A DNA stretch of 10,650 nucleotides. Source: Candidatus Rokuibacteriota bacterium. GTDB lineage: Bacteria; Methylomirabilota; Methylomirabilia; Rokubacteriales; CSP1-6. The stretch's first letter is position 1; every line of letters begins with the position of its first letter. The stretch is taken from NCBI GenBank assembly GCA_016184305.1, contig JACPCX010000097.1, forward strand, positions 1-10,650. Direction: 5' to 3'. Both the position numbers and the translations under genes were made by a program. This document shows, piece by piece, positions 1-10,650 of this stretch. Below the pieces are notes generated by a model, which saw nothing but the letters and a program-made list of their open reading frames with translations, searched no databases and was not told where the DNA came from.

Positions 1-789
1 GCCGAGGTCCAGGTGATCGTGGACGCCTCCGACCCGCAGGTGGCCACGTCCGCCATCAACGCCGCCAGCTCGCTGGGCGCCCAGCGGTCGCTGGAGATCA
101 TCACCAAGACGCTGGAGGGCAGCACGCTCGGCCGTCGGACCGGGGTGCCCTTCGACGTGCGGGTCCGCGCCTGGTACAACCCCGACCTCGTGTCCGCCAT
201 CTTCATCGTCCCCGGCCTCATCGGCGCGCTCCTGATGCAGACCACCATCACGGCCATGGCGGTGTCCGTGGTGCGCGAGCGGGAGAAGGGGACCCTCGAG
301 GCCCTGATCGTGAGCCCGATCCGGCGCTGGGAATTGCTCCTCGGCAAGATCATCCCCAACCTGCTCGTGGCCTACGGCCAGATGACCATGGCGCTCATCG
401 TGGCCCACTTCGTCTTCGACGTCCCCATCCGCGGCAGCCTGCCGCTGCTGTACGGGCTCGCTCTGGTCTTCATGATGGGCACGCTCGGCATCGGGATCTT
501 CGTCTCCGCGGCCGCGCGCACGGTGCCGCAGGCGATGCAGATGGCCTTCCTGACATTCCTGCCATCCATCTACCTCTCCGGGCTCCTCTTCCCCATCGAG
601 GGGATGCCCACGGGGGCCCAGTACCTGGCCTCGATCATCCCGCTCACGTACTTCCTGCGGATCGTGCGCGGGATCATCCTCAAGGGCGTCGGGTTCGGCG
701 ATCTCTGGCCGAGCCTGCTGCCGCTGCTGGCCTTCGGGGTCGTGATCTTCTCGCTGGCCGTGATCAAGTTCCGCAAGCAGCTCGACTGA
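1..789 (+). CDS. ABC-2 type transporter permease (YbhR/YbhS-like), 5' end outside the window
   Basis: The frame is open from base 1 to TGA at 787-789. Motifs WYNPDL..IVPGLIG, SVVREREKGTLEALIVSP..LLGKIIP, LSGLLFPIEGMP and PLTYFLRIVRGIILKG, with about six hydrophobic segments, match ABC2_membrane_3 permeases. Confidence 0.93.
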   Translation, partial: AEVQVIVDASDPQVATSAINAASSLGAQRSLEIITKTLEGSTLGRRTGVPFDVRVRAWYNPDLVSAIFIVPGLIGALLMQTTITAMAVSVVREREKGTLEALIVSPIRRWELLLGKIIPNLLVAYGQMTMALIVAHFVFDVPIRGSLPLLYGLALVFMMGTLGIGIFVSAAARTVPQAMQMAFLTFLPSIYLSGLLFPIEGMPTGAQYLASIIPLTYFLRIVRGIILKGVGFGDLWPSLLPLLAFGVVIFSLAVIKFRKQLD

Positions 790-799
790 GAGGGCACCC

Positions 800-2104
800 A
801 TGCGATTGCTCACGTGTGTTGTCGCCGCGTTCCTCCTCTCCCCCGTCTCCGTGAGCGCCGCGCCCATCGCCCAGCGCGAGGTCCTCGGCAACGGAATGAC
901 GCTTCTCGTCGCCGAGCGCAGCGCGATCCCCATCGTCTCGGTGAGCGTTTACCTGCGGGCGGGCTCGGCCTTCGACCCGCCGGGCGCTCCCGGCGTCGCG
1001 AGCCTCACCGCCGATCTCCTCACGCGTGGCACGGCCCGGCGCCCGGGCCCGGAGCTGGACCGCGCGATCGAATTCGTGGGCGGCAGCCTCGAGGCCGAGG
1101 CGGGGAAAGACGGCGTCACGGTCTCGCTCGCCGTGCTGAAGAAGGACCTGGCGCTCGGGCTCGATCTCCTCGCCGAGGTGCTGCGCGAGCCCACCTTCCC
1201 GGAGGACGAGCTCAAGCGCAGGGTGGCGGAGGTGCAGGCCGCGCTCAAGCGCTCCGAGGAGAACCCGGAGACCGTTGCCGGGCGCGCGCTGGGGCAGGCC
1301 CTCTACCCGGGCCACCCCTATGCGCATCCGACGCAGGGGACCATCGAGTCCGTCGGCAAGATCACCCGCGCGGAGGTGCTCCGATTCCACCGTGAGCACT
1401 ATCGGCCCGACGCCGCCGTGGTCGCGGTGGTCGGCGACGTCACGCGCGACGAGATCCGGCGCGAGCTCGGGGCCAGGCTGGGCGGCTGGACCGCGCCGGC
1501 GGGAGCGCGGGCGGCGGTTCCCTCGGCGATCGCCGTGCTGCCGCCCGCCATCACGCGAACGCTCACGCGCGAGCTGACCCAGGCCACCGTCTACATGGGC
1601 CGCCCGGCGATCCGCCAGGACCACCCGGACTACTTCCCGCTGGTGCTGGCCAACTACGTCCTGGGCGGAGGCTCGGCCTCCCGCCTCTACACGCGGGTGC
1701 GCGAGGAGCGGGGGCTCGCCTACTCGATCTACTCCTCGCTGTCCCCGGCGCGCTACGGCGCCTCCTTCGTGGTGGGACTGCAGACTCGGAACGAGGGCGT
1801 GGACGAGGCGATGCGCCTCGCGAAGGAAGAGATGAGCCGGATGGGGCGGGAGCCCGTGACCGCCGCCGAGCTCGACCTGGCCCGGGCGTACCTCATCGGG
1901 AGCTTCCCGCTGCGCATGGACACCTCGGGCAAGGTGGCGCGGCTGATGATCGCCGTGGAGGAGTACGGCCTCGGGCTCGACTACCCGGATCGCTACAAGG
2001 AGCGCATCGGCCGCGTCACCGCGGCGGACGTGCAGCGCGTCGCGGCGCGCTACCTGGACCCCGCGCAGTTCTCGGTGATCACGGTGCGGGGCAAGACCGA
2101 CTAG
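800..2104 (+). CDS. M16 (pitrilysin/insulinase) family protein, M16B-like, secreted and probably non-catalytic
   Basis: 434 aa with an N-terminal signal-peptide-like segment and motifs LGNGMTLLV, RAGSAFDP, LYPGHPY, HYRPD..VVGDV and SRLYTRVREERGLAYSI. The HXXEH zinc motif is replaced by SLTAD (1001-1015). GAGAGGG lies upstream of the ATG. Confidence 0.9.
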   Translation: MRLLTCVVAAFLLSPVSVSAAPIAQREVLGNGMTLLVAERSAIPIVSVSVYLRAGSAFDPPGAPGVASLTADLLTRGTARRPGPELDRAIEFVGGSLEAEAGKDGVTVSLAVLKKDLALGLDLLAEVLREPTFPEDELKRRVAEVQAALKRSEENPETVAGRALGQALYPGHPYAHPTQGTIESVGKITRAEVLRFHREHYRPDAAVVAVVGDVTRDEIRRELGARLGGWTAPAGARAAVPSAIAVLPPAITRTLTRELTQATVYMGRPAIRQDHPDYFPLVLANYVLGGGSASRLYTRVREERGLAYSIYSSLSPARYGASFVVGLQTRNEGVDEAMRLAKEEMSRMGREPVTAAELDLARAYLIGSFPLRMDTSGKVARLMIAVEEYGLGLDYPDRYKERIGRVTAADVQRVAARYLDPAQFSVITVRGKTD

Positions 2105-2646
2105 CGCAAGGGCCAGGTGCGGTAGGGGCCGTAGGGCCAGAGAGGGCCGTGGGGCCAGTAGGGCCAGTCGTAGAAGCCGGGTGGGTAGACGGGAACGATG
2201 TGCGTTGCGGCCACGTCCCGCGGCCAGAGCCGGATGCGCTCGGCCGCGATGACCGGGTAACGGTACGGCAATTCGCCGATCGGGCGCTCCACCTCGGCCG
2301 TGACCGTCCCCAGGACGGTGATGCGGCGCCCCGGCGCGTAGACGGCCGGATCGAGGAAGTCGGCGGTCTTCACGAGGAAGCGTCCCTCCGAGCGGTCGCT
2401 CCGCTCGGGAGAGTCGTCCGGGCGCAGGCGGCGGGCCAGCACCTCGATCTCGGTCTCGCCCACCCGGGGGCGGGTGGCGAGGATCTCGCCGCCGAGGATG
2501 ACGCGCGCGTTGACGTGGGCCGCCGGCGCCTGGCGCAGCTCGGCGACGGTGAGCGTGCGATTCACCGAGATCACGATCTCGTCGGGGAACGCGGAGACGC
2601 ACCCGGCGAGTAGCAGGCTCGCGAAAAGGGCTCGAGCGCCACGCAT
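2101..2646 (-). CDS. slp: Slp family outer-membrane lipoprotein
   Basis: The ATG at 2646 gives MRGARALFASLLLAGC (lipobox LAGC). Slp motifs VILGGEI, GRFLV..FLDPAVYAPGRRITVLG, IGELPYRYPVI and LWP are present, followed by a Pro/Tyr/Trp-rich tail. The ORF-track extension to 2751 is not supported. Confidence 0.9.
   Translation of the reverse strand: MRGARALFASLLLAGCVSAFPDEIVISVNRTLTVAELRQAPAAHVNARVILGGEILATRPRVGETEIEVLARRLRPDDSPERSDRSEGRFLVKTADFLDPAVYAPGRRITVLGTVTAEVERPIGELPYRYPVIAAERIRLWPRDVAATHIVPVYPPGFYDWPYWPHGPLWPYGPYRTWPLR
2122..2166 (-). repeat. Five imperfect 9-nt tandem units encoding WPY-WPH-GPL-WPY-GPY in the Slp C-terminal tail
   Basis: Plus-strand units gtaggggcc, gtagggcca, gagagggcc, gtggggcca, gtagggcca are read directly from the sequence. 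Confidence 0.75.
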
Positions 2647-2652
2647 GTTCCT

Positions 2653-2681
2653 ACCGTACCCCCCTTGGCGTCCGGGAGCAA
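2653..2681 (-). promoter_or_regulatory. Putative sigma70-type promoter of slp, positioned for a leaderless transcript
   Basis: On the minus strand: TTGCTC (2681-2676), 17 nt, TACGGT (2658-2653), 6 nt, ATG (2646). Confidence 0.5.
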
Positions 2682-2759
2682 CGCAAGGGCGAGCGGACAT
2701 GGGGTTCCGCCGAGCGGAGGGAGGCGGGTCGTCCTCGGCGCGCTGCCCCACCGGGTCAA

Positions 2760-2787
2760 ATGATGCGTCGCGGCATCATGTTACAAT
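2760..2787 (+). promoter_or_regulatory. Extended -10 promoter (TGnTACAAT) with an overlapping palindrome ATGATGC-N6-GCATCAT
   Basis: TG at 2779-2780 and TACAAT at 2782-2787 sit in a locally AT-richer patch, 21 nt before ATG 2809. A perfect 7-bp inverted repeat spans 2760-2766 / 2773-2779. Confidence 0.6.
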
Positions 2788-2808
2788 GACGCCGGCGTGA
2801 GCGGAATC

Positions 2809-3387
2809 ATGCGGCGCGTGTGGATGCTTGTCGTTGTCGGAGTCACGCTGTGGCCTGCCACGGGCCAGCCCGCGGCGGCGGCCTCCTTCGCCTTGACGGA
2901 GCGGGAGCAGCAGGAGGCCATTCGTCTCGGCCGGAAGAGCGTCGTCCAGGAGCAGATCGGCGGCGAGTGGACGAGCGACAACGGCTCGGGCGAGACGCTG
3001 ACCGTCGTGACGCCGTTCCATCGGCTCGCATTGGCGGCGCGCAATGCCGCCTTCAAGAAGGAACCGCTCAAGCCGAGGGAGATCCGTGCGGTCCTCAAGG
3101 AAACCACGCGGAAGCTCACCGTGTGGGTCACGCTGCGCGGAGCCAAGTCCGACTTCGCGCGCTTCTTCGAACCGGCGCTGCGCGACGGCAAGGCCGAGAT
3201 CAAGCCGAGCTTCGTGCAGAACGAGCGGACGGCCCTGCGCGGGGAGGACGGGCGGTACGCCGCCCGCTGCCTCTACGTGTTCGACGCCGAGACGCTGAAC
3301 CCGAAGGGGCGGTTCACGCTGATCGTGCGTGATCCGGACGAGAAAGAGGTCTCGAAGTTCACGCTGGATCTCTCAGCCATGCGGTAA
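2809..3387 (+). CDS. Hypothetical protein, probably secreted (192 aa; alternative GTG start at 2797)
   Basis: Strong GC3 codon bias and a natural amino-acid composition. The N-terminus MRRVWMLVVVGVTLWPATGQPAAAASFA resembles a Sec signal peptide. No family recognised. Confidence 0.8.
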   Translation: MRRVWMLVVVGVTLWPATGQPAAAASFALTEREQQEAIRLGRKSVVQEQIGGEWTSDNGSGETLTVVTPFHRLALAARNAAFKKEPLKPREIRAVLKETTRKLTVWVTLRGAKSDFARFFEPALRDGKAEIKPSFVQNERTALRGEDGRYAARCLYVFDAETLNPKGRFTLIVRDPDEKEVSKFTLDLSAMR

Positions 3388-3409
3388 GGACCAGAACAGG
3401 AGAGCGCAC

Positions 3410-4378
3410 ATGAAAGCGATTCGCATCCATACACCCGGCGGGCCCGAGGTGATGAAGCTCGAGGATGTCGCGGAGCCCTCCCCCGGCGCAGGGCAGGCGG
3501 TTGTCAAGCTCGAGGCGGCCGGGCTCAACTACATCGACGTCTATTTCCGCACCGGCGCCTCCAAGGCATCCCTGCCGCTCACTCCCGGTTTCGAGGGCGC
3601 GGGCACCGTCACCTCCGTGGGGCCCGGCGTCACCGACGTCAAGGTCGGCGATCGGGTGGCCTACACGGGGATCCTGGGCTCCTACGCCCAGATGAACGTC
3701 TGCCCCGCCGATCGCCTCGTGAAGCTCCCCGACGGGCTGTCCTTCCGCGACGGCGCCGCCGCGATGCTCCAGGGGATGACGGCCCACTACCTCGTGGGGT
3801 CCACGTATCCCGTCGACAAGGGCGACACCTGCCTCGTGCACGCGACGGCGGGCGGCATGGGGCTCCTCCTCTGCCAGATGGCCAAGATGCGCGGCGCGAC
3901 CGTGATCGGGACGGTGTCCACGGAGGAGAAGGCCGCGCTGGCGCGGGCGGCGGGGGCGGACCACGTCATCCTCTACGCCTCTCAGGACTTCGTGGCCGAG
4001 GTGAAGCGCATCACCGGCGGCCGCGGCGTGGACGTGGTCTACGACGGCGTGGGGGCCACGACCTTCAGCGGGAGCCTGGACTGCTTGAGACCCCGCGGCA
4101 TGATGGTGCTGTTCGGGGCGGCGAGCGGACCCGTGCCGCCGCTCGATCTCCAGCTCCTCAATGTCAAAGGATCGCTCTTCGTGACGCGCCCGAGCCTCAA
4201 CCATCACATCGCCGCGCGCGGGGAATTGCTTCAGCGCGCCGGGGACGTGCTCGGCTGGATCCGCGACGGCAAGATCAAGCTGCGCGTGGAGATCACGTTC
4301 CCGCTGGCGCAGGCCGCCGACGCCCATCGCGCCCTCGAGAGCCGCAAGACCACAGGAAAGGTCCTGCTGCTGCCATGA
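3410..4378 (+). CDS. qor: NADPH:quinone oxidoreductase (zinc-independent MDR / zeta-crystallin family)
   Basis: AGGAG at 3398-3402 precedes ATG 3410. Motifs MKAIRIHTPGGPEVM, GLNYIDVYFRTG, AAAMLQGMTAHYL, HATAGGMG, GVDVVYDGVG, FGAASG, KGSLFVTRPSL and RKTTGKVLLLP. Confidence 0.95.
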   Translation: MKAIRIHTPGGPEVMKLEDVAEPSPGAGQAVVKLEAAGLNYIDVYFRTGASKASLPLTPGFEGAGTVTSVGPGVTDVKVGDRVAYTGILGSYAQMNVCPADRLVKLPDGLSFRDGAAAMLQGMTAHYLVGSTYPVDKGDTCLVHATAGGMGLLLCQMAKMRGATVIGTVSTEEKAALARAAGADHVILYASQDFVAEVKRITGGRGVDVVYDGVGATTFSGSLDCLRPRGMMVLFGAASGPVPPLDLQLLNVKGSLFVTRPSLNHHIAARGELLQRAGDVLGWIRDGKIKLRVEITFPLAQAADAHRALESRKTTGKVLLLP

Positions 4379-4459
4379 CGGCCACGCGCGTCGAGGGCTC
4401 GACCGTCGGGCCCGGAGGCGCCTCGACGGCAAACCCCACCGTCCTGCTGATCCCGTGAC
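4361..4459 (+). repeat. Imperfect direct repeat of the last six codons of qor, copies 80 nt apart
   Basis: GTCCTGCTGCTGCCATGAC (4361-4379, VLLLP*) versus GTCCTGCTGATCCCGTGAC (4441-4459, VLLIP*), 16/19 identical. Confidence 0.7.
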
Positions 4460-4477
4460 CGTGGAGCGGGGCGAGAC

Positions 4478-5968
4478 ATGAACATCGCGCGGACTCTCGA
4501 GCGGTCGGCATTCCACCACCCCGAGCGGACGGCCCTCATCTTCAAGGACCAGCGCTGGACCTACCGGCAGCTTGATTGCGCCGCCTCCTCGCTGGCCTCG
4601 GGGCTCGCCGGCCTCGGCCTGACGCCGGGGGAGCGCATCGGGCTCCACCTGCCGAACTGGCCCGAATTCGTGCTGACCTACTTCGCCGCCAGCAAGATCG
4701 GCCTCGTCCCCATCTCGCTGAACGTGGTCTACAGGCCGGACGAGCTCGGCTACATCATCAACGACGGGGCGGCCGCCGCGGTGGTCACGGCCGAGCCCGT
4801 GGCCGCGAGCCTCCCGCCGCGGCGCGACCTGCCGTCGGTGCGGTCCATGATCCGGGTGGGCGGGGCGGGGAGCGACGTGGACTTCCGCGCGCTCTCGGGC
4901 GACCCGGGGCTCCGCGCGATCGAGCTCGATCGGAGCGAAACGGCCGCCATCCTCTACACCTCGGCCACCACCGGGCGTCCCAAGGGCGTCATGCTCACCC
5001 ACGAGAACGTGGTGTCCAACACGTACGCCACGACCCACCACCTTCGCATGACGCCCGACGACCGGGGGCTCTGCGCGCTGCCGCTGTTCCACTGCTTCGG
5101 CCAGAACTTCATCATGAACGCGCTCCTGAATTGCGGGGGCACGCTCGTGCTCCAGGAGCGCTTCGTGCTGGACGACTTCACCGCCGCCATCGGGGCCCAC
5201 GGGGTGACGCTGCTGTACGCCGTCCCCACCATGTACATCCTGATGCTCTCCGCGGACATGCGCCGGTGGGACATCACCTCGCTCCGGCTCTGCTTCTCGG
5301 CGGCGGCGAGCCTGCCTGCCGAGCCGGAGCGGCAGTGGAAGCAGCGCACGGGGCACGACATCCACCAGGGCTACGGCCTCACCGAGTGCTCCCCCTTCGC
5401 CTCCTACAACCACGACACGGCCGTTCGCCCCGGCTCCATCGGCACGCCCATCGAGAACGTGGAGATGAAGGTGGTGGATCCCGCCACCGGGCAGGAGGTC
5501 GCCGACGGTCAGCTGGGCGAGATCCTCATCAAGGGCCCCAACGTGATGAAGGGCTACTTCCGGAACCCGGAGGCGACGGCTCTGGCGGTGCGGGGCGGGT
5601 GGCTCCACTCCGGCGATATCGGCTCTCGCGACGCGGACGGCTACTTCTATGTCGTGGACCGCGTCAAGGACATGATCAACGTTTCCGGCTTCAAGGTCTT
5701 TCCCCGAGAGGTCGAGGAGGTGCTGTTCCTCCATCCGTCGGTGAAGGAGGTCGCCGTGCTGGGCATGCCCGATCCGGTGCGCGGCGAGGCCGTGAAGGCC
5801 TTCGTGGTTCTCAAGGAGGGCGCGACGGCCGATGCCGAGGCGCTCCGCGCCCTCTGCCGCGACAAGGTCGCCTCGTACAAGGTGCCCGAGGCCATCGAGT
5901 TCATCCCCGCCCTTCCCAAGAGTCCCACGGGGAAGATCCTGAAGAAGGACATGCGGACCCCGGCGTGA
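4478..5968 (+). CDS. Long-chain-fatty-acid--CoA ligase-like AMP-binding enzyme (ANL superfamily, FadD/LcfB-like)
   Basis: 496 aa with YTSATTGRPKG P-loop, LPLFHCFG, QGYGLTE, GEILIKGPNVMKGY, GWLHSGDIG, DRVKDMINVSGFKVFPREVEEVL and LPKSPTGKILK. GGAGCGGGG lies upstream of the ATG. Confidence 0.93.
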   Translation: MNIARTLERSAFHHPERTALIFKDQRWTYRQLDCAASSLASGLAGLGLTPGERIGLHLPNWPEFVLTYFAASKIGLVPISLNVVYRPDELGYIINDGAAAAVVTAEPVAASLPPRRDLPSVRSMIRVGGAGSDVDFRALSGDPGLRAIELDRSETAAILYTSATTGRPKGVMLTHENVVSNTYATTHHLRMTPDDRGLCALPLFHCFGQNFIMNALLNCGGTLVLQERFVLDDFTAAIGAHGVTLLYAVPTMYILMLSADMRRWDITSLRLCFSAAASLPAEPERQWKQRTGHDIHQGYGLTECSPFASYNHDTAVRPGSIGTPIENVEMKVVDPATGQEVADGQLGEILIKGPNVMKGYFRNPEATALAVRGGWLHSGDIGSRDADGYFYVVDRVKDMINVSGFKVFPREVEEVLFLHPSVKEVAVLGMPDPVRGEAVKAFVVLKEGATADAEALRALCRDKVASYKVPEAIEFIPALPKSPTGKILKKDMRTPA

Positions 5969-7578
5969 GGCTCAGGTGGATCCTCGCCGCGGCCGGCGTT
6001 CTGCTCCTGCTCGTCGTCGGGGCGCTGGCCGCGCTGCCGTGGCTTGTCGACATCCCGAAGGTGCAGGCCTACATCTCCCTGCGGGCGAGCCAGGCGCTCG
6101 GCCGGCCCGTCACGTTCGCCTCGCTGTCCCTCGCGCTCTTGCCGCGCCCGGCCGTCAGGCTGCGCGGCCTCTCGGTGGCCGATGACCCGCGCTTCGGCAC
6201 CGCCCCCTTCCTCACCGTGGAAGAAGGCCGATTCGGATTGCGCCTGAGGCCGCTGCTGTCCGGCCGCGTGGAGTTCACTGATCTCACGCTTGACCGACCC
6301 CGCCTGGAGGTGGTGGAGGAGGGCGGCCGGCTCAATATCGCGACGCTGGGCGCGCAGACCTCGACCGCGCGCGGCGCTGCGAGGGCGGGGGGCGGCGCGT
6401 CCCGGGCGGCTCCGGCGGTCGCAGGGCTCATGTCCCAGGTCCGGATCACCAACGGCGCCCTCCGCTATCAGAAGCGGGGCGTCACGGGCGGCGACTGGCG
6501 GCTGGAGGACATGACCTTCACCCTCCACGCGAATGGGCGCGGTGATGGGCTTCTGTTGAAAGGCCAGGCCGTTGCCCAGCCGGGCGGCGTCCGGCTGGGG
6601 ATCACCGAGGCGACGCTCTCACTTGGTGGGGGCCGCGCCTTCACGGAGGCCCCGCTCCGCGCGCGGCTCGACATCGAGGCCAAGGACGTGGCGGCGCTCG
6701 GCGGCGCGTTCCTGGCCTCTCCATCGCTCGCCGGGCCCGTCGCGGGGCGGCTTCTGCTCGGCGGCACGGTCTCGCAGCTGACCGCCTCCGGCGAGCTGCG
6801 TCTGGAGCGTCTCACGGTCTCGGAGCAGCGCCCGCATTGCCCCATGCCCACGCTCCGTCAGCTCGCGCTCCAGGATGTCCGTGTGCCGGTGGCGCTGACG
6901 CCCATCAGACTCGACAGCCGGCCGCTCCAGGCGCAGGTGAACGGAGGGAGCGCGTCGGCCCACCTGACGGCGGACCTGCAGACGGCGCCCGTCATGGCGG
7001 TCAGGACGCTCACCCTCAAGGCCATCACCGTCAAGGGGATGCAGCTCTCGCCGCTCCTGGTGGACTACCTCTGCCAGGCCTATGCCGTCTCGGGTCCGCT
7101 GGATCTGACGGGCGAGGCGGTGCTGCGCCCTGCCGATCCGTGGCGGACGCTCAGCGGCGCCGGCACGTTGCAGATCGGGCGAGGGAAGGTGGTGGGCGCG
7201 GGAGCCATGCGGACGCTCCGAGACGTGGCGGAGCTGGCCGGCGCGCTGTCGCCGCTCCATCGCCCCGCGCAGGAGAGCCGTCCCGGCGCCTCGGCGCTCG
7301 ACTTCGACGCCATCACGGCGACCTACCGGATCGCCGGGGGCGTGGTGAGCACCGAGGACCTGCTTTACCGGAGCGGCACGATGACGCTGGCGGGCGCCGG
7401 CACCTACGGCCTGCGGGACGGCACGGTGGACATGGCGGTGACGCTCACGCAGGGGCGCGCCCAGGTCAAGGCACAGGTCACCGGCTCGAGTGGCGGCGCG
7501 CTCCGCGTGGTCCCCACCGACATCAAGTACAGGGAGCGGGGCGGGATCAGGAAGCTGCTGGAGCGGCTGTTGCGCTGA
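5965..7578 (+). CDS. AsmA family protein (537 aa)
   Basis: The GTG start overlaps the ligase stop (GTGA). An N-terminal membrane anchor is followed by ASQALGRPV..LRGLSVADDPRFG..LRLRPLLSGRVE..LTLDRPRL, and the C-terminus LDFDAITATYRIAGGVVSTEDL..LAGAGTYGL is AsmA-like. The sequence is beta-strand rich. Confidence 0.85.
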   Translation: MRLRWILAAAGVLLLLVVGALAALPWLVDIPKVQAYISLRASQALGRPVTFASLSLALLPRPAVRLRGLSVADDPRFGTAPFLTVEEGRFGLRLRPLLSGRVEFTDLTLDRPRLEVVEEGGRLNIATLGAQTSTARGAARAGGGASRAAPAVAGLMSQVRITNGALRYQKRGVTGGDWRLEDMTFTLHANGRGDGLLLKGQAVAQPGGVRLGITEATLSLGGGRAFTEAPLRARLDIEAKDVAALGGAFLASPSLAGPVAGRLLLGGTVSQLTASGELRLERLTVSEQRPHCPMPTLRQLALQDVRVPVALTPIRLDSRPLQAQVNGGSASAHLTADLQTAPVMAVRTLTLKAITVKGMQLSPLLVDYLCQAYAVSGPLDLTGEAVLRPADPWRTLSGAGTLQIGRGKVVGAGAMRTLRDVAELAGALSPLHRPAQESRPGASALDFDAITATYRIAGGVVSTEDLLYRSGTMTLAGAGTYGLRDGTVDMAVTLTQGRAQVKAQVTGSSGGALRVVPTDIKYRERGGIRKLLERLLR

Positions 7579-8395
7579 CGCGGGCGCCGCCGAGCTTGCC
7601 CGCCCCCACGAGGCCCACGAAGAAGGCGTAGAGCTGATCGTACTCGTCGTAGCGCGCCTGGCCCAGCCGTGCCACGGTGTCCTCGCGCAGGCTGCGGTAC
7701 ATCTCGAGCCGGCGCCGCAGGATCTGGATCCACTCCCCCGAGAGGTCCTCAGCCTCGATGGCCGTGAAGCCGGCCCGCCCCAGCAGCGCGCGGTAGCCCG
7801 GAACCGTCTCGATGGCGACGGCGGCCATCCACTCCTCGAGCCGGCGCCGCTCTCCGTCCTCGAGCCTCGGCGCGGCGATCCAGTCGCTGAAGGCGATGCG
7901 CCCGCCGGGGCGGAGCACGCGGGCGCACTCCCTGAGCACGCGGCCCTTGTCCGGGACGTGCAGCAGTCCCTCCTGGCTGATCGCGGCATCGAAGGCGCCC
8001 CGGCGGAACGGGAGCTGCTGCGCGTCGCCGCGGATGCTCCGGACCAGTCGGTGGAGCCGCACGAGTCTCGACAGCGTGGCGTTGCCCAGGCAGCGGCCTG
8101 CGTTCAGGTCCAGCGCCGTGACGTGCGCCCCGAAGCGGTGGGCCAGGAAGCGCGCCGGGCCTCCGAGGCCCGCGCAGACGTCCAGCACCCGCGCGCCGGG
8201 CCCGATGGCGGCGCGCCGCGCCAGGGTCTCGACGGCCTCGAGCCCGCCGTAGTGGTCCTGGTCCCAGTCGTAGAGGTCCTCGGGGACGAGGGATCGAGTG
8301 TCCTTGCCCTGGCGCCGGAGCGCGTCCAGCACCTGCGGGAGGCTGATGGGATGCCGGTCATAGAAGTCGATCACGCCCGGCAGCAGCGTTGACAT
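7547..8395 (-). CDS. Class I SAM-dependent methyltransferase (Methyltransf_11 type, resembling sarcosine/dimethylglycine or other small-molecule N-methyltransferases)
   Basis: Motifs DQDHYGG, motif I VLDVCAGLGG, VTALDLN, GDAQQLPF..FDAAIS and ECARVLRPGGRIAFSDW. The 3' end overlaps the AsmA gene by 32 nt. The substrate cannot be determined from sequence. Confidence 0.9.
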   Translation of the reverse strand: MSTLLPGVIDFYDRHPISLPQVLDALRRQGKDTRSLVPEDLYDWDQDHYGGLEAVETLARRAAIGPGARVLDVCAGLGGPARFLAHRFGAHVTALDLNAGRCLGNATLSRLVRLHRLVRSIRGDAQQLPFRRGAFDAAISQEGLLHVPDKGRVLRECARVLRPGGRIAFSDWIAAPRLEDGERRRLEEWMAAVAIETVPGYRALLGRAGFTAIEAEDLSGEWIQILRRRLEMYRSLREDTVARLGQARYDEYDQLYAFFVGLVGAGKLGGARVSATAAPAAS

Positions 8396-8401
8396 GGCGG
8401 C

Positions 8402-8407
8402 AGTCTA
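8402..8407 (-). promoter_or_regulatory. Putative -10 element TAGACT 6 nt before the methyltransferase ATG (leaderless arrangement)
   Basis: The minus strand reads TAGACT-GCCGCC-ATG with no Shine-Dalgarno in between. Only a weak -35 (TTCTCC, 8430-8425) lies at 17-nt spacing. Confidence 0.55.
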
Positions 8408-8433
8408 TCCGTCCCGCGCGCTCGGGAGAAGCC

Positions 8434-8462
8434 TTGAAGTGACCGGACCCGTGTGGTACAAG
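8434..8462 (+). promoter_or_regulatory. Putative sigma70-type promoter upstream of the citrate synthase remnant
   Basis: TTGAAG (8434-8439), 17 nt including TG at 8454-8455, then TACAAG (8457-8462). The last base of the -10 is non-consensus. Confidence 0.45.
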
Positions 8463-8512
8463 AAGGCGTTTTCCCCCTGCCCCACCACAGCCAAGGGAGT
8501 ATCAGGGACGCC

Positions 8513-8647
8513 ATGACGAACGCCGCAGGATCCTCGGAGAAGGCCGGTCTCGAGGACGTCGTCGTGTCCACCTCGGAGATCTGTTTCATCGACGGACAGC
8601 AGGGCCGGCTCGTGTACCGCGGCTTCGACGTGGACGATCAGCGGTAG
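8513..8647 (+). pseudogene. Truncated citrate / 2-methylcitrate synthase, N-terminal 44 codons only
   Basis: AGLEDVVVSTSEICFIDGQQGRLVYRGFDVDD matches the conserved N-terminal GLEGV...S.IDG..G.L.YRGY.I.DL pattern of short-type citrate synthases. It ends abruptly at QR-TAG with no continuation in any frame. Purine-rich AAGGGAG/AGGGA lies upstream. Confidence 0.85.
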
Positions 8648-8655
8648 CTCTTCGG

Positions 8656-8704
8656 CTCCTCACCCCGCCCTCTCCCCCGAGGCGAGAGGGCGCGGCGTGA
8701 GGGG
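8656..8704. repeat. BoxC/REP-like palindromic element
   Basis: CCTCACCCCGCCCTCTCCCCCGAGGCGAGAGGG resembles the widespread CCCTCACCC..CCCTCTCCC..GGGAGAGGG repeat. CGCCCTCTC (8666-8674) pairs with GAGAGGGCG (8684-8692), and CCTCAC (8658-8663) pairs with GTGAGG (8697-8702). Only one copy is present in the window. Confidence 0.65.
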
Positions 8705-8725
8705 GAATCGCCTCACGTCGTGCCC

Positions 8726-9520
8726 ATGACCGTCAGCCTGGTCCTCGTCGTCTACAATCAGCTGCCGCTGACGCGCGCCTGCCTCGAGAGCCTCAGGCCG
8801 ACCACCGAGCCCTTCGATCTCTGCGTGGTGGACAACGGCTCCACCGACGGCACGGAGGCATACTTCACGGAGGGGCCGCTCGGCTCTCCGTTGCGGTATC
8901 AGCGGAACGCCGAGAACGTCGGGCTGATCCGGGCCCTCAATCAGGGGGCGCGGCTGTCGCAGTCGGAGTACCTCTGCCTGCTCCACAACGACACCGAGAT
9001 GCGTGCCCCGGAGTGGCTGGCGCGCCTCCGGGCGGCCGTCGAGGGCGCGCCGGGGGCCGGCCTGGCCGGGCTCCACGGCGCGCGCCGGCTGAGGCGGGAC
9101 GGGCGCTACGTGGGCCGCACCATCGTCTCGAGCCTCGCGGGGCGCGGCAATCTCCGTGCGCCGGTCACCGAGGTGGCTGCCGTGGACGGCGTGTGCCTGT
9201 TCCTCCGGCGCGCGCTGCTCGAATCGGTCGGCGGGTTCGACGAGGGTTACGGGTTCTTTCATGGCTACGATCGCGACCTGTCCTTCGCGGTGCGCGAGGC
9301 CGGGCACCGCTGCGTCGTGGTGCAGGCGCCGTTCCTCCACCACGGGGGCGGGACCCGGACGGGCCCCGAGGCGCCGCGCCCGCCCGAGCGGGACCTGACC
9401 GAGCGGCGCGAGGCCCTGGCGCGCTTCGCGCAGAAGTGGCACCATCGCCTCCCGAGCGACGTCCGCCGCCTCCCGGAGCGCGTCCGCGACTTTCTCTCGC
9501 CGCGCCGAGCGAGGGGATGA
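8726..9520 (+). CDS. Glycosyltransferase family 2 (GT-A fold); alternative GTG start at 8720
   Basis: Motifs VSLVLVVYNQ..TRACLESL, VVDNGSTDGT, NAENVG..RALNQG, YLCLLHND, GVCLFLRR..VGGFDEGY and YDRDLSF. Confidence 0.92.
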   Translation: MTVSLVLVVYNQLPLTRACLESLRPTTEPFDLCVVDNGSTDGTEAYFTEGPLGSPLRYQRNAENVGLIRALNQGARLSQSEYLCLLHNDTEMRAPEWLARLRAAVEGAPGAGLAGLHGARRLRRDGRYVGRTIVSSLAGRGNLRAPVTEVAAVDGVCLFLRRALLESVGGFDEGYGFFHGYDRDLSFAVREAGHRCVVVQAPFLHHGGGTRTGPEAPRPPERDLTERREALARFAQKWHHRLPSDVRRLPERVRDFLSPRRARG

Positions 9521-9621
9521 TCGCGTCCGTGGAGCCGCAGAACTTCTTTCACACCGACACGGGGGGCCTGGTCGTCTCTCCCGAGACCGGTCCCGCCACG
9601 AGGGAGAGCCGCCAGCCATGA
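9517..9621 (+). CDS. Possible small ORF (34 aa) linking GT2 and the DapF-like gene
   Basis: The ATG overlaps the GT2 stop (ATGA 9517-9520) and the TGA overlaps the dapF-like start (ATGA 9618-9621). Product MIASVEPQNFFHTDTGGLVVSPETGPATRESRQP; no family recognised. Confidence 0.35.
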   Translation: MIASVEPQNFFHTDTGGLVVSPETGPATRESRQP

Positions 9622-10487
9622 TTCCGTTCGTCAAGGGGCACGGCCTCGGAAACGACTACATCGTCATCGACGCCCAGGACCTGCCGGCGCCGCTGACGCC
9701 CGGGCAGGTGCAGCGGATCTGCGACCGGAACTGGGGCGTGGGGTCCGACGGGATCCTCCTGCTCGTGCCCGCGTGGACGGGGGCCGACTTCGGGCTCCGG
9801 ATCTTTAATCCGGACGGCAGCGAGGCCGAGAAGTCGGGCAACGGGCTTCGCATCTTCGCCAAGTACCTGCACGACCACGGCCGCGCGAGCCGTCCAGCGT
9901 TCACGGTGGACACCAAGGGGGGGCGCGTCGTCTGCCAGTGCCACGTGGCGGGCGGCCGCGTGGGCGAGGTGACGGTGGAGATGGGGCGGTGCACGTTCGT
10001 GGCGCCCGAGATCCCCATGACCGGCCCCGCGCGCGAGGTGGTGCGGGAGCCGCTCCAGGTGGGCGAGCGGACGCTCAGCGTCACGGTCGTCTCGGTGGGC
10101 AACCCGCATTGCGTGGTGTTCGCGGACCGGCTGGACGAGGCGGAGACGCGCCGGCTCGGCCCGCTCATCGAGAACCACCCCGCGTTCCCGAACCGGACGA
10201 ACGTGCAATTCGCCCGCGTGGCCTCCCGCTCAGAGGTGGACATCCTGATCTGGGAGCGCGGCGCCGGCTACACCCTGGCGTCGGGCTCCTCATCGAGCGC
10301 GGTGGCCTGCGCGGCCGTGAAGACCGGCCTCTGCGACCACGGGCTCGTGACGGTGCGGATGCCCGGCGGCACGCTGTCGGTGGACGTCCGGCCCGACTGG
10401 TCCATCTGCCTGCAGGGGCCGGTGGAGGAGGTCTACGCGGGGACCTTCTCCCGCGACTTCATGGACGCGCTGCGGCGCGTGGGCTAG
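9618..10487 (+). CDS. dapF: Diaminopimelate epimerase (DapF)-family protein, Ser/Ser active-site variant
   Basis: Motifs FVKGHGLGNDY, ICDRNWGVGSDG, RIFNPDGSEAE, VSVGNPHCVVF, FPNRTNVQF, WERGAG.TLA and MPGG.L. The canonical CGNG and ACGTG motifs read SGNG and ASGSS. AGGGAG lies upstream. DAP epimerase activity itself is uncertain. Confidence 0.9.
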   Translation: MIPFVKGHGLGNDYIVIDAQDLPAPLTPGQVQRICDRNWGVGSDGILLLVPAWTGADFGLRIFNPDGSEAEKSGNGLRIFAKYLHDHGRASRPAFTVDTKGGRVVCQCHVAGGRVGEVTVEMGRCTFVAPEIPMTGPAREVVREPLQVGERTLSVTVVSVGNPHCVVFADRLDEAETRRLGPLIENHPAFPNRTNVQFARVASRSEVDILIWERGAGYTLASGSSSSAVACAAVKTGLCDHGLVTVRMPGGTLSVDVRPDWSICLQGPVEEVYAGTFSRDFMDALRRVG

Positions 10488-10650
10488 AGGCCCGAGTGCT
10501 CGGCCTGCTCGAGGGCGGCGCGCGCCAGGGCCTCGACCCGGGGGGCCATGAGGCCGAAGCGCTCGTCGCGCGTCTGGCCGCGCTTCCAGCGGATGTAGAT
10601 CTGCTGGACGACCACCGCGGTCTTGTAGCGCGCGAAGACCTCGTAGAAGG
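10484..10650 (-). CDS. 3' end of an aminoglycoside-phosphotransferase-family protein (ACAD10/11 N-terminal-like kinase); start outside the window
   Basis: My translation of the minus strand gives FYEVFARYKTAVVVQQIYIRWKRGQTRDERFGLMAPRVEALARAALEQAEHSGL*. The K.AV..QQIY.R..RGQT.DERF pattern is characteristic of this family. It is absent from the ORF track because it lacks a start. Confidence 0.8.
   Translation of the reverse strand, partial: FYEVFARYKTAVVVQQIYIRWKRGQTRDERFGLMAPRVEALARAALEQAEHSGL

Follow-up and report, generated by a model that had tools for sequence, protein, structure and literature searches.

Introduction

By the textbook criterion, diaminopimelate (DAP) epimerase (DapF, EC 5.1.1.7) is an enzyme with a thiol-thiolate pair of cysteines, the first in a CGNG motif and the second in an ACGTG motif. 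According to the 2025 literature as presented in PMC13728532 (Proteins 2026), the Cys/Cys pair has ceased to define the DapF family. DapFs of the same fold that use two catalytic serines were described by Lamer et al. (Lamer T, van Belkum MJ, Chen P, et al., J Mol Biol 437(21):169375 (2025), as cited in PMC13728532), and natural Ser/Ser DapFs were reported there to be catalytically active. Anabaena sp. YBS01 carries one Cys/Cys and one Ser/Ser DapF; exchange of the serines for cysteines inactivated its Ser/Ser enzyme, and the Ser/Ser paralogue was suggested to be a backup for oxidative stress (PMC13728532). The Anabaena structure 9MRO is that of the Cys/Cys enzyme (PMC12039745). Here we describe a dapF gene of the Ser/Ser type in contig JACPCX010000097.1 of a Candidatus Rokuibacteriota bacterium (assembly GCA_016184305.1), of which positions 1 to 10,650 were analyzed (10,650 nucleotides, hereafter the window). 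Like the second DapF of Anabaena sp. YBS01, its product belongs to the DapF family and fold and has Ser at both catalytic positions; unlike that protein, which accompanies a Cys/Cys form, it is the sole copy in a Rokubacteria/Methylomirabilota genome. We conclude that the gene very probably encodes a working thiol-free DAP epimerase that is the housekeeping DapF of the organism, an activity predicted from its status as sole copy, from gene fusions and from gene neighborhoods. DapFs that naturally use catalytic serines have been published before, and the protein in the window is another case of that class; a first-pass annotation of this DNA had noted that prior literature on Ser/Ser DAP epimerases would remove the novelty of the finding, and such literature exists (PMC13728532).

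Two further systems are close enough to be compared. The C73S and C217S forms of Haemophilus influenzae DapF (PDB 2q9h and 2q9j) have the same fold with Ser at one catalytic site, but they are engineered single changes in a Cys/Cys background and are slowed, whereas the protein described here is a natural double Ser form whose neighboring residues appear to have co-evolved. The H. influenzae Cys-to-Ser mutants of Koo et al. 2000 reportedly keep some residual activity. PhzF and the trans-3-hydroxy-L-proline dehydratase of the proline racemase family share the superfold with the protein in the window (template-modeling (TM) scores of 0.70-0.77, 13-17% identity), but they constitute separate families, and the gene context points to neither pathway.

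A DapF protein with serine at both catalytic positions

The dapF open reading frame (ORF) lies on the forward strand at 9618..10487, stop codon included, and extends from an ATG start to a TAG stop through 289 codons, giving a protein of 289 amino acids that was assigned from its translation, PF01678, TIGR00652, AlphaFold2 and Foldseek. The DapF equivalog model TIGR00652 scored 240.7 bits against a cut-off of 114.65 and was covered from position 2 to 268 of 270, and PF01678 scored 179.2 bits (cut-off 34.7) in two stretches. The Pro_racemase model PF05544 reached 17 bits, under its gathering score of 27, and PhzF gave no match in the Pfam scan. When the protein was aligned by phmmer with the solved DapFs of Anabaena (9mro), Arabidopsis (3ejx) and Bacillus anthracis (2otn), the alignment was free of gaps near both catalytic sites. 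Ser73 (TCG, 9834..9836, in the context EAEKSGNGL) fell on the Cys of CGNG, and Ser222 (TCG, 10281..10283, in the context TLASGSSSS) fell on the Cys of ACGTG, so that the protein lacks the textbook Cys/Cys pair and has Ser at both sites. Lys72 (AAG, 9831..9833), which adjoins Ser73, is specific to the subfamily, as described below. The motifs GND, NPDGS, GNPH, RTN and WERG are all present. The first-pass annotation had reported the two serines, the intact substrate-binding motifs and the full-length ORF; the codons, the contexts and the alignment to solved DapFs bore out the serines in every detail, and the motif search and the coverage of TIGR00652 agreed with the remainder.

An AlphaFold2 model of the protein, built on 40 Ser/Ser sequences, had a mean predicted local distance difference test score (pLDDT) of 97.4, with S73 immediately before helix 74-86 and S222 immediately before helix 223-235. 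The top Foldseek match was 9mro_A (TM 0.90/0.94, root-mean-square deviation (rmsd) 1.8), and the best structural matches were all DapFs. The model and the Foldseek matches thus displayed the two-domain pseudosymmetric alpha/beta fold of DapF with the catalytic residues at the N-termini of the central helices, and the two serines are predicted to occupy these N-termini, exactly in the places of the cysteines. The canonical Cys/Cys enzymes (9mro, 3ejx, 2otn, 4ijz, 8qzy and 1gqz) match the same family models and have the same fold (TM 0.78-0.90); they share with the protein in the window the conserved positions and, as judged from genomic context, the genomic role. When aligned by structure, the protein in the window was 29-39% identical to solved DapFs. 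No natural Ser/Ser DapF chain was found by phmmer or Foldseek in the PDB copies searched.

The model resembled 9mro and 3ejx, which are inhibitor-bound and closed (TM 0.88-0.90, rmsd 1.8-2.2), more than it did 4ijz and 8qzy, which are DapFs without a ligand (TM 0.78-0.81, rmsd 3.1-3.6). AlphaFold2 is described as tending toward the open form for such enzymes (PMC11602996).

Conservation of the serine pair

Both SGNG and ASGS were found in 121 of 121 proteins with at least 79% identity to the DapF in the window, the closest of which bear source names of Candidatus Rokubacteria and Methylomirabilota. Because all of these relatives carry both motifs, the Ser/Ser substitution is far beyond what chance or sequencing error would produce. 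We then assembled a representative set of 151 sequences, consisting of the query and the 150 best representatives of 50%-identity clusters from a library of 1.84 billion proteins, and aligned it with MAFFT. There were 104 Ser/Ser sequences, 34 Cys/Cys sequences and 13 with partial or odd pairs (S/-, -/S, R/S, S/P, T/C, Y/S, E/S, C/S and S/T). The consensus around the two sites was EAEKSGNGL and GYTLASGSSSC in the Ser/Ser group, and EAEMCGNGI and GETLACGTGAC in the Cys/Cys group.

A quick IQ-TREE analysis was carried out with 101 rows, comprising alternate Ser/Ser representatives, all representatives of other types with 240 residues or more, and six Cys/Cys sequences translated from loci. A branch with a Shimodaira-Hasegawa-like approximate likelihood ratio test (SH-aLRT) value of 99 united 58 rows, namely 50 Ser/Ser sequences, three that were cut at the second site and five with S/T, E/S, R/S, S/P or T/C; none of the Cys/Cys rows fell inside it. 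The Ser codons also varied, since the fetched loci used all six (TCG, TCC, TCA, TCT, AGC and AGT) at site 73, and TCN together with one AGC at site 222. As read from these sequences, the varied codons fit prolonged purifying selection for serine itself.

These results answer the question raised by the first-pass annotation of whether Ser/Ser sequences form a conserved clade, as the SH-aLRT 99 branch holds nearly all of them. The annotation had proposed a selected Ser/Ser subfamily, and the 121 relatives, the 104 of 151 representatives, the tree and the codons agree that the form is ancient and is neither a recent mutation nor an error. It had also argued that each TCG codon is two nucleotide changes away from a Cys codon; this holds for both TGT and TGC in the codon table, and the uniform relatives with their varied Ser codons point the same way. 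The opposite case, in which close homologs would carry Cys/Cys and the gene in the window would be a one-off decay, did not occur. Sequencing error, recent decay and selenocysteine recoding were ruled out, given that TCG is an ordinary Ser codon and that conservation is clade-wide with varied Ser codons.

A few representatives departed from the general pattern. P0238 is a Ser/Ser row that was placed among the Cys/Cys rows and may represent a separate origin of the serine form. P0184 has Thr/Cys inside the Ser/Ser clade, P0267 has Ser/Thr and P0265 has Cys/Ser. Each of these four is a single cluster representative in which a sequencing or assembly error is possible.

Residues around the active site

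We compared alignment columns between 103 Ser/Ser and 34 Cys/Cys representatives. Apart from the two catalytic sites, six positions differed most sharply. Position 225 is Ser in 94% of the Ser/Ser set and Gly in 100% of the Cys/Cys set, and position 248 is Met in 86% of the former and Leu in 100% of the latter. Lys occupies position 72 in 83% of Ser/Ser and 0% of Cys/Cys sequences, 91% of the latter having Met. The other three were position 79 (Ile in 95% versus Cys in 82%), position 197 (Gln in 93% versus Glu in 82%) and position 224 (Ser in 77% versus Thr in 94%). The protein in the window differs accordingly from the canonical Cys/Cys enzymes by K72 (Met), I79 (Cys), Q197 (Glu), S224 (Thr), S225 (Gly), S226 (Ala) and M248 (Leu).

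That the clade-specific substitutions cluster around both catalytic sites is one of several points that favor an alternative in which the Ser/Ser protein, although a binder of DAP or a similar amino acid, carries out another chemistry, or else acts on another substrate, and an unrecognized enzyme makes meso-DAP. An altered catalytic pair in the DapF fold is known to shift the chemistry, as in the Cys/Thr trans-3-hydroxyproline dehydratase, PrpF and PhzF. DapF homologues with other substrates are on record as well, namely the O-ureidoserine racemase 7vdy and histidine racemase (PMC11602996). What speaks against this alternative at the level of the active site is that 38 positions, the DAP-binding motifs among them, were more than 85% conserved in both the Ser/Ser and the Cys/Cys sets. 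They include N12, N64, G74, N75, N162, N195, E213 and R214, all present in the protein in the window, which the H. influenzae and Anabaena structure papers reportedly assign as substrate ligands. The substrate-ligand residues of DapF are given in general terms in PMC12039745.

The same columns bear on whether another cysteine, that of NPHC, that of SAVAC or C35 of ICDR, took over as the catalytic thiol. C35 and C165 are present in 96% and 89% of the Ser/Ser representatives, which would suit such a replacement, but they are also present in 74% and 65% of the Cys/Cys representatives and are hence not specific to the clade. C227 (72% versus 65%) is Ser in the protein in the window, C231 is found in only 13% of the Ser/Ser clade, and position 79, which is Cys in 82% of Cys/Cys sequences, is Ile in the window. 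In addition, S73 and S222 themselves sit at the helix N-termini in the AlphaFold2 model. Because no Cys column specific to the Ser/Ser clade was found in this comparison, we reject a relocated thiol as highly improbable, and the suggestion in the first-pass annotation that the NPHC or SAVAC cysteines might substitute is unsupported.

Distribution of the two forms and need for meso-DAP in Methylomirabilota

A single DapF match was found in the genome from which the window comes (a 3.2 Mb assembly, 88.83% complete). A second, Cys/Cys DapF was not found in this assembly, and two congeneric genomes (94% and 98% complete) had one DapF match each, both Ser/Ser (L087 and L092); the second Cys/Cys copy whose presence the first-pass annotation had proposed to check was thus found in none of the three. 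Across the phylum, 112 of 121 sampled Methylomirabilota genomes had a DapF match, essentially one each. Four genomes had two matches, each with at least one that was cut: two halves in two genomes, and a full copy with a contig-end fragment in the other two. The main match of 111 of the 112 genomes was classified, G100 and five fragment matches being left out, and 92 were Ser/Ser, three were partial with Ser at the sole covered site and 16 were Cys/Cys. When unpublished genomes were set aside (the Ser/Ser loci of G029, G047 and G058, and the tallied G100), 89 Ser/Ser sequences remained and the picture was the same. None of the 111 classified genomes had both forms, and the forms divided by family, with Cys/Cys in f4, f5 and f7 and Ser in f1, f2, f3, f6, f8 and f9. 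That 95 of the 111 genomes have the Ser form as their one DapF homologue, and that the form tracks families cleanly, is difficult to reconcile with another chemistry or substrate.

The Cys/Cys DapFs of Methylomirabilota are only 31-34% identical to the protein in the window, and in the tree they form a long branch of their own within the Cys/Cys part. Hence the two forms are no sister pair within the phylum; one has taken the place of the other, via transfer or differential loss.

The lineage seems to need meso-DAP. MurE of the same genome passes two 2,6-diaminopimelate-ligase equivalog models (533.5 bits, cut-off 373, and 528.1 bits, cut-off 476) and fails the L-lysine-ligase model (280.3 bits, cut-off 536). 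The first-pass annotation had asked whether a bypass through Ddh, meso-DAP dehydrogenase, might exist; Ddh was not found in this genome, where the best match scored 21.4 bits against a cut-off of 180.6, and its absence likewise counts against a Ser/Ser protein with a different function. There was also no match in the genome to dapD of the succinylase branch.

Gene fusions and neighborhoods of Ser/Ser DapFs

Fusions provided a further indication of function. In P0127 and P0157, LysA (360.3 and 409.8 bits, cut-off 297.9) is fused to a Ser/Ser DapF domain, and in P0145 a Ser/Ser DapF is fused to MurE (451.1 bits, cut-off 257.3; 433.6 bits with the DAP-ligase equivalog, cut-off 373). Alanine racemase (378.8 and 247 bits, cut-off 168) is fused to Ser/Ser DapF in P0189 and P0255. 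Fusions on metagenome contigs may be artefacts of gene calling; even so, they show that the genes are adjacent. Two other fusion partners, GGACT (gamma-glutamyl cyclotransferase-like) in P0138 and a GNAT acetyltransferase in P0231, are unexplained by a role in lysine or cell-wall synthesis.

A scan of one genome per species gave at least 600 matching stretches, from which 80 loci, all Ser/Ser, were kept and their crude ORF calls clustered. An aminotransferase cluster occurred in 15 of the 80 loci, and its sole annotated representative was DapL (TIGR03542, 620.7 bits, cut-off 364.7). A LysA-like neighbor was present in 11 of the 80, the sole annotated representative scoring 289.5 bits, just below 297.9; in nine of the ten cases with a measurable distance, it lay within 170 nucleotides of dapF on the same strand. 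One Polyangiaceae locus has the order dapF, DapL-like gene, LysA-like gene. Searches of plasmid records gave 94 matches, all below 60% identity; the 40 listed were at 41.2% or less and included no cyanobacterial organism. A protein atlas returned only generic DapF clusters.

The links to LysA, MurE and DapL-like genes, together with the reported activity of Ser/Ser DapFs (PMC13728532), add to the case against another chemistry or substrate, which we regard as unlikely despite the retention of a Cys/Cys copy in some genomes, described below. The same evidence applies to a third possibility, that the protein is a non-catalytic pseudoenzyme acting as a DAP sensor or binder or as a protein partner. 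Neither textbook catalytic residue is present, and E. coli DapF moonlights with RppH (titles of PDB 6d13 and 6vck; PMC13728532). Nevertheless, the whole active-site shell is conserved, and so are the serines, the latter with synonymous codon turnover, as expected of catalytic residues, and a pseudoenzyme would leave the lineage without any known route to meso-DAP; we consider this possibility very improbable. Of the three options put forward in the first-pass annotation, the best fit is a mechanism that dispenses with thiols and keeps the substrate. The other two, another substrate and a non-catalytic binder, found no support in a sole DapF homologue with such links in a lineage that needs meso-DAP.

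The titles of the Ser/Ser loci covered a wide range of bacteria. They included the candidate phyla Rokubacteria, Dadabacteria, Firestonebacteria and Latescibacterota, as well as Thermodesulfobacteriota, Nitrospira, Gemmatimonadota, Anaerolineae, Pirellulales, Polyangiaceae, Opitutales, Acidobacteriota, Ignavibacteriota, Spirochaetota and several Bacteroidales groups, with Tangfeifania diversioriginum, Clostridium sp. LS, Sulfurihydrogenibium and Sporomusa among the cultured or named organisms. The sole DapF match was Ser/Ser in the Tangfeifania, Sulfurihydrogenibium and Nitrospira genomes. Thermodesulfobacteriota, Anaerolineae, Bacteroidales, Sporomusa and Clostridium are largely anaerobic. 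The group names of the loci (L127-L206) therefore suggest an anaerobe-rich distribution that sits uneasily with the oxidative-stress rationale offered for Anabaena.

Predicted activity and mechanism

According to the reading that we favor, a thiol-free housekeeping epimerase, the DapF in the window would make meso-DAP from LL-DAP as a precursor of lysine and peptidoglycan. The reaction would be the same two-base 1,1-proton transfer as in the canonical enzyme, with Ser-OH and Ser-O- replacing thiol and thiolate. The Ser alkoxide would be aided by the helix dipoles and by exclusion of water on closure, and the clade-specific neighbors Lys72, Ser224/Ser225, Gln197, Met248 and Ile79, the last in place of a third Cys, may assist it. 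Lys72 or the extra serines may have a part in forming the alkoxide.

Several observations weigh against a working epimerase. As an acid/base, a serine hydroxyl is much inferior to a thiol. When a single Cys is mutated to Ser in enzymes of this class, catalysis is slowed or hindered, and such mutants have served as aids to crystallization (PMC11602996). The likeness to the Ser/Ser DapF of Anabaena sp. YBS01 is one of fold and Ser pair, and the two proteins may belong to different clades. Some genomes have both forms, Clostridium sp. LS with one Cys/Cys and one Ser/Ser DapF and a Sporomusa metagenome-assembled genome with one Cys/Cys and two Ser/Ser DapFs, and in such genomes the Ser/Ser copy could be specialized. 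Finally, the pathway is incomplete in the assembly that contains the window: dapB had no match (at 88.83% completeness), the three dapA-like matches were all under the cut-off (best 165.1 bits, cut-off 206.15), the LysA-like gene scored 250.9 bits against 297.9, and the best DapL-like gene scored higher as alanine transaminase (628.2 bits) than as DapL (545 bits), below all cut-offs. The surrounding pathway therefore rests partly on related genomes. In 41 genomes of the same family, that of the window included, dapB was over the cut-off in 38 and dapA in 36, and the two genes are adjacent in the family, including both other genomes of the genus (compare G037:C30:9716-11396). Because dapA and dapB are present across the family and genus, the gap is most simply explained by missing sequence, and the absence of the dapA-dapB pair from this assembly is probably an assembly gap.

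A broader proposal is tentative, and we think it possible but more doubtful than the epimerase activity itself: that many phyla, strict anaerobes included, have the Ser/Ser form as their only housekeeping DapF, where it displaced Cys/Cys at the family level and reaches beyond a backup for oxidative stress. Its activity would then require a shell of residues that co-evolved with the serines (Lys72, Ser224/225, Gln197 and Met248, with Cys79 lost). If this is true, a shell-activated Ser alkoxide that abstracts the alpha-proton would be a chemically distinct solution worth dissecting. The clean replacement at the family level in one phylum and the many anaerobes bear on the reason for which the serine form exists.

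Ser/Ser genes labeled "diaminopimelate epimerase" are probably annotated correctly even though the cysteines are missing, and DapF should not be counted as defective when the pathway is reconstructed for Rokubacteria, Nitrospira, Aquificae and many Bacteroidales. Inhibitors that target the thiols of DapF, aziridino-DAP for example, would presumably fail to label the Ser/Ser enzymes.

Neighboring genes

The immediate context of dapF in the window was uninformative, as the upstream gene encodes a family-2 glycosyltransferase and the downstream side gave no family match in Pfam. A convergent open frame on the reverse strand (10488-10649) runs off the end of the window and terminates directly against the dapF stop codon; Pfam gave no match for it or for an overlapping longer frame on the same strand (10293-10649). 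Elsewhere in the window, an ORF of 196 amino acids at 2797-3384 on the forward strand, which had no Pfam match, begins with a signal-peptide-like sequence and lies between a gene for an Slp-family lipoprotein (2104-2751, reverse strand) and a zinc-type dehydrogenase gene.

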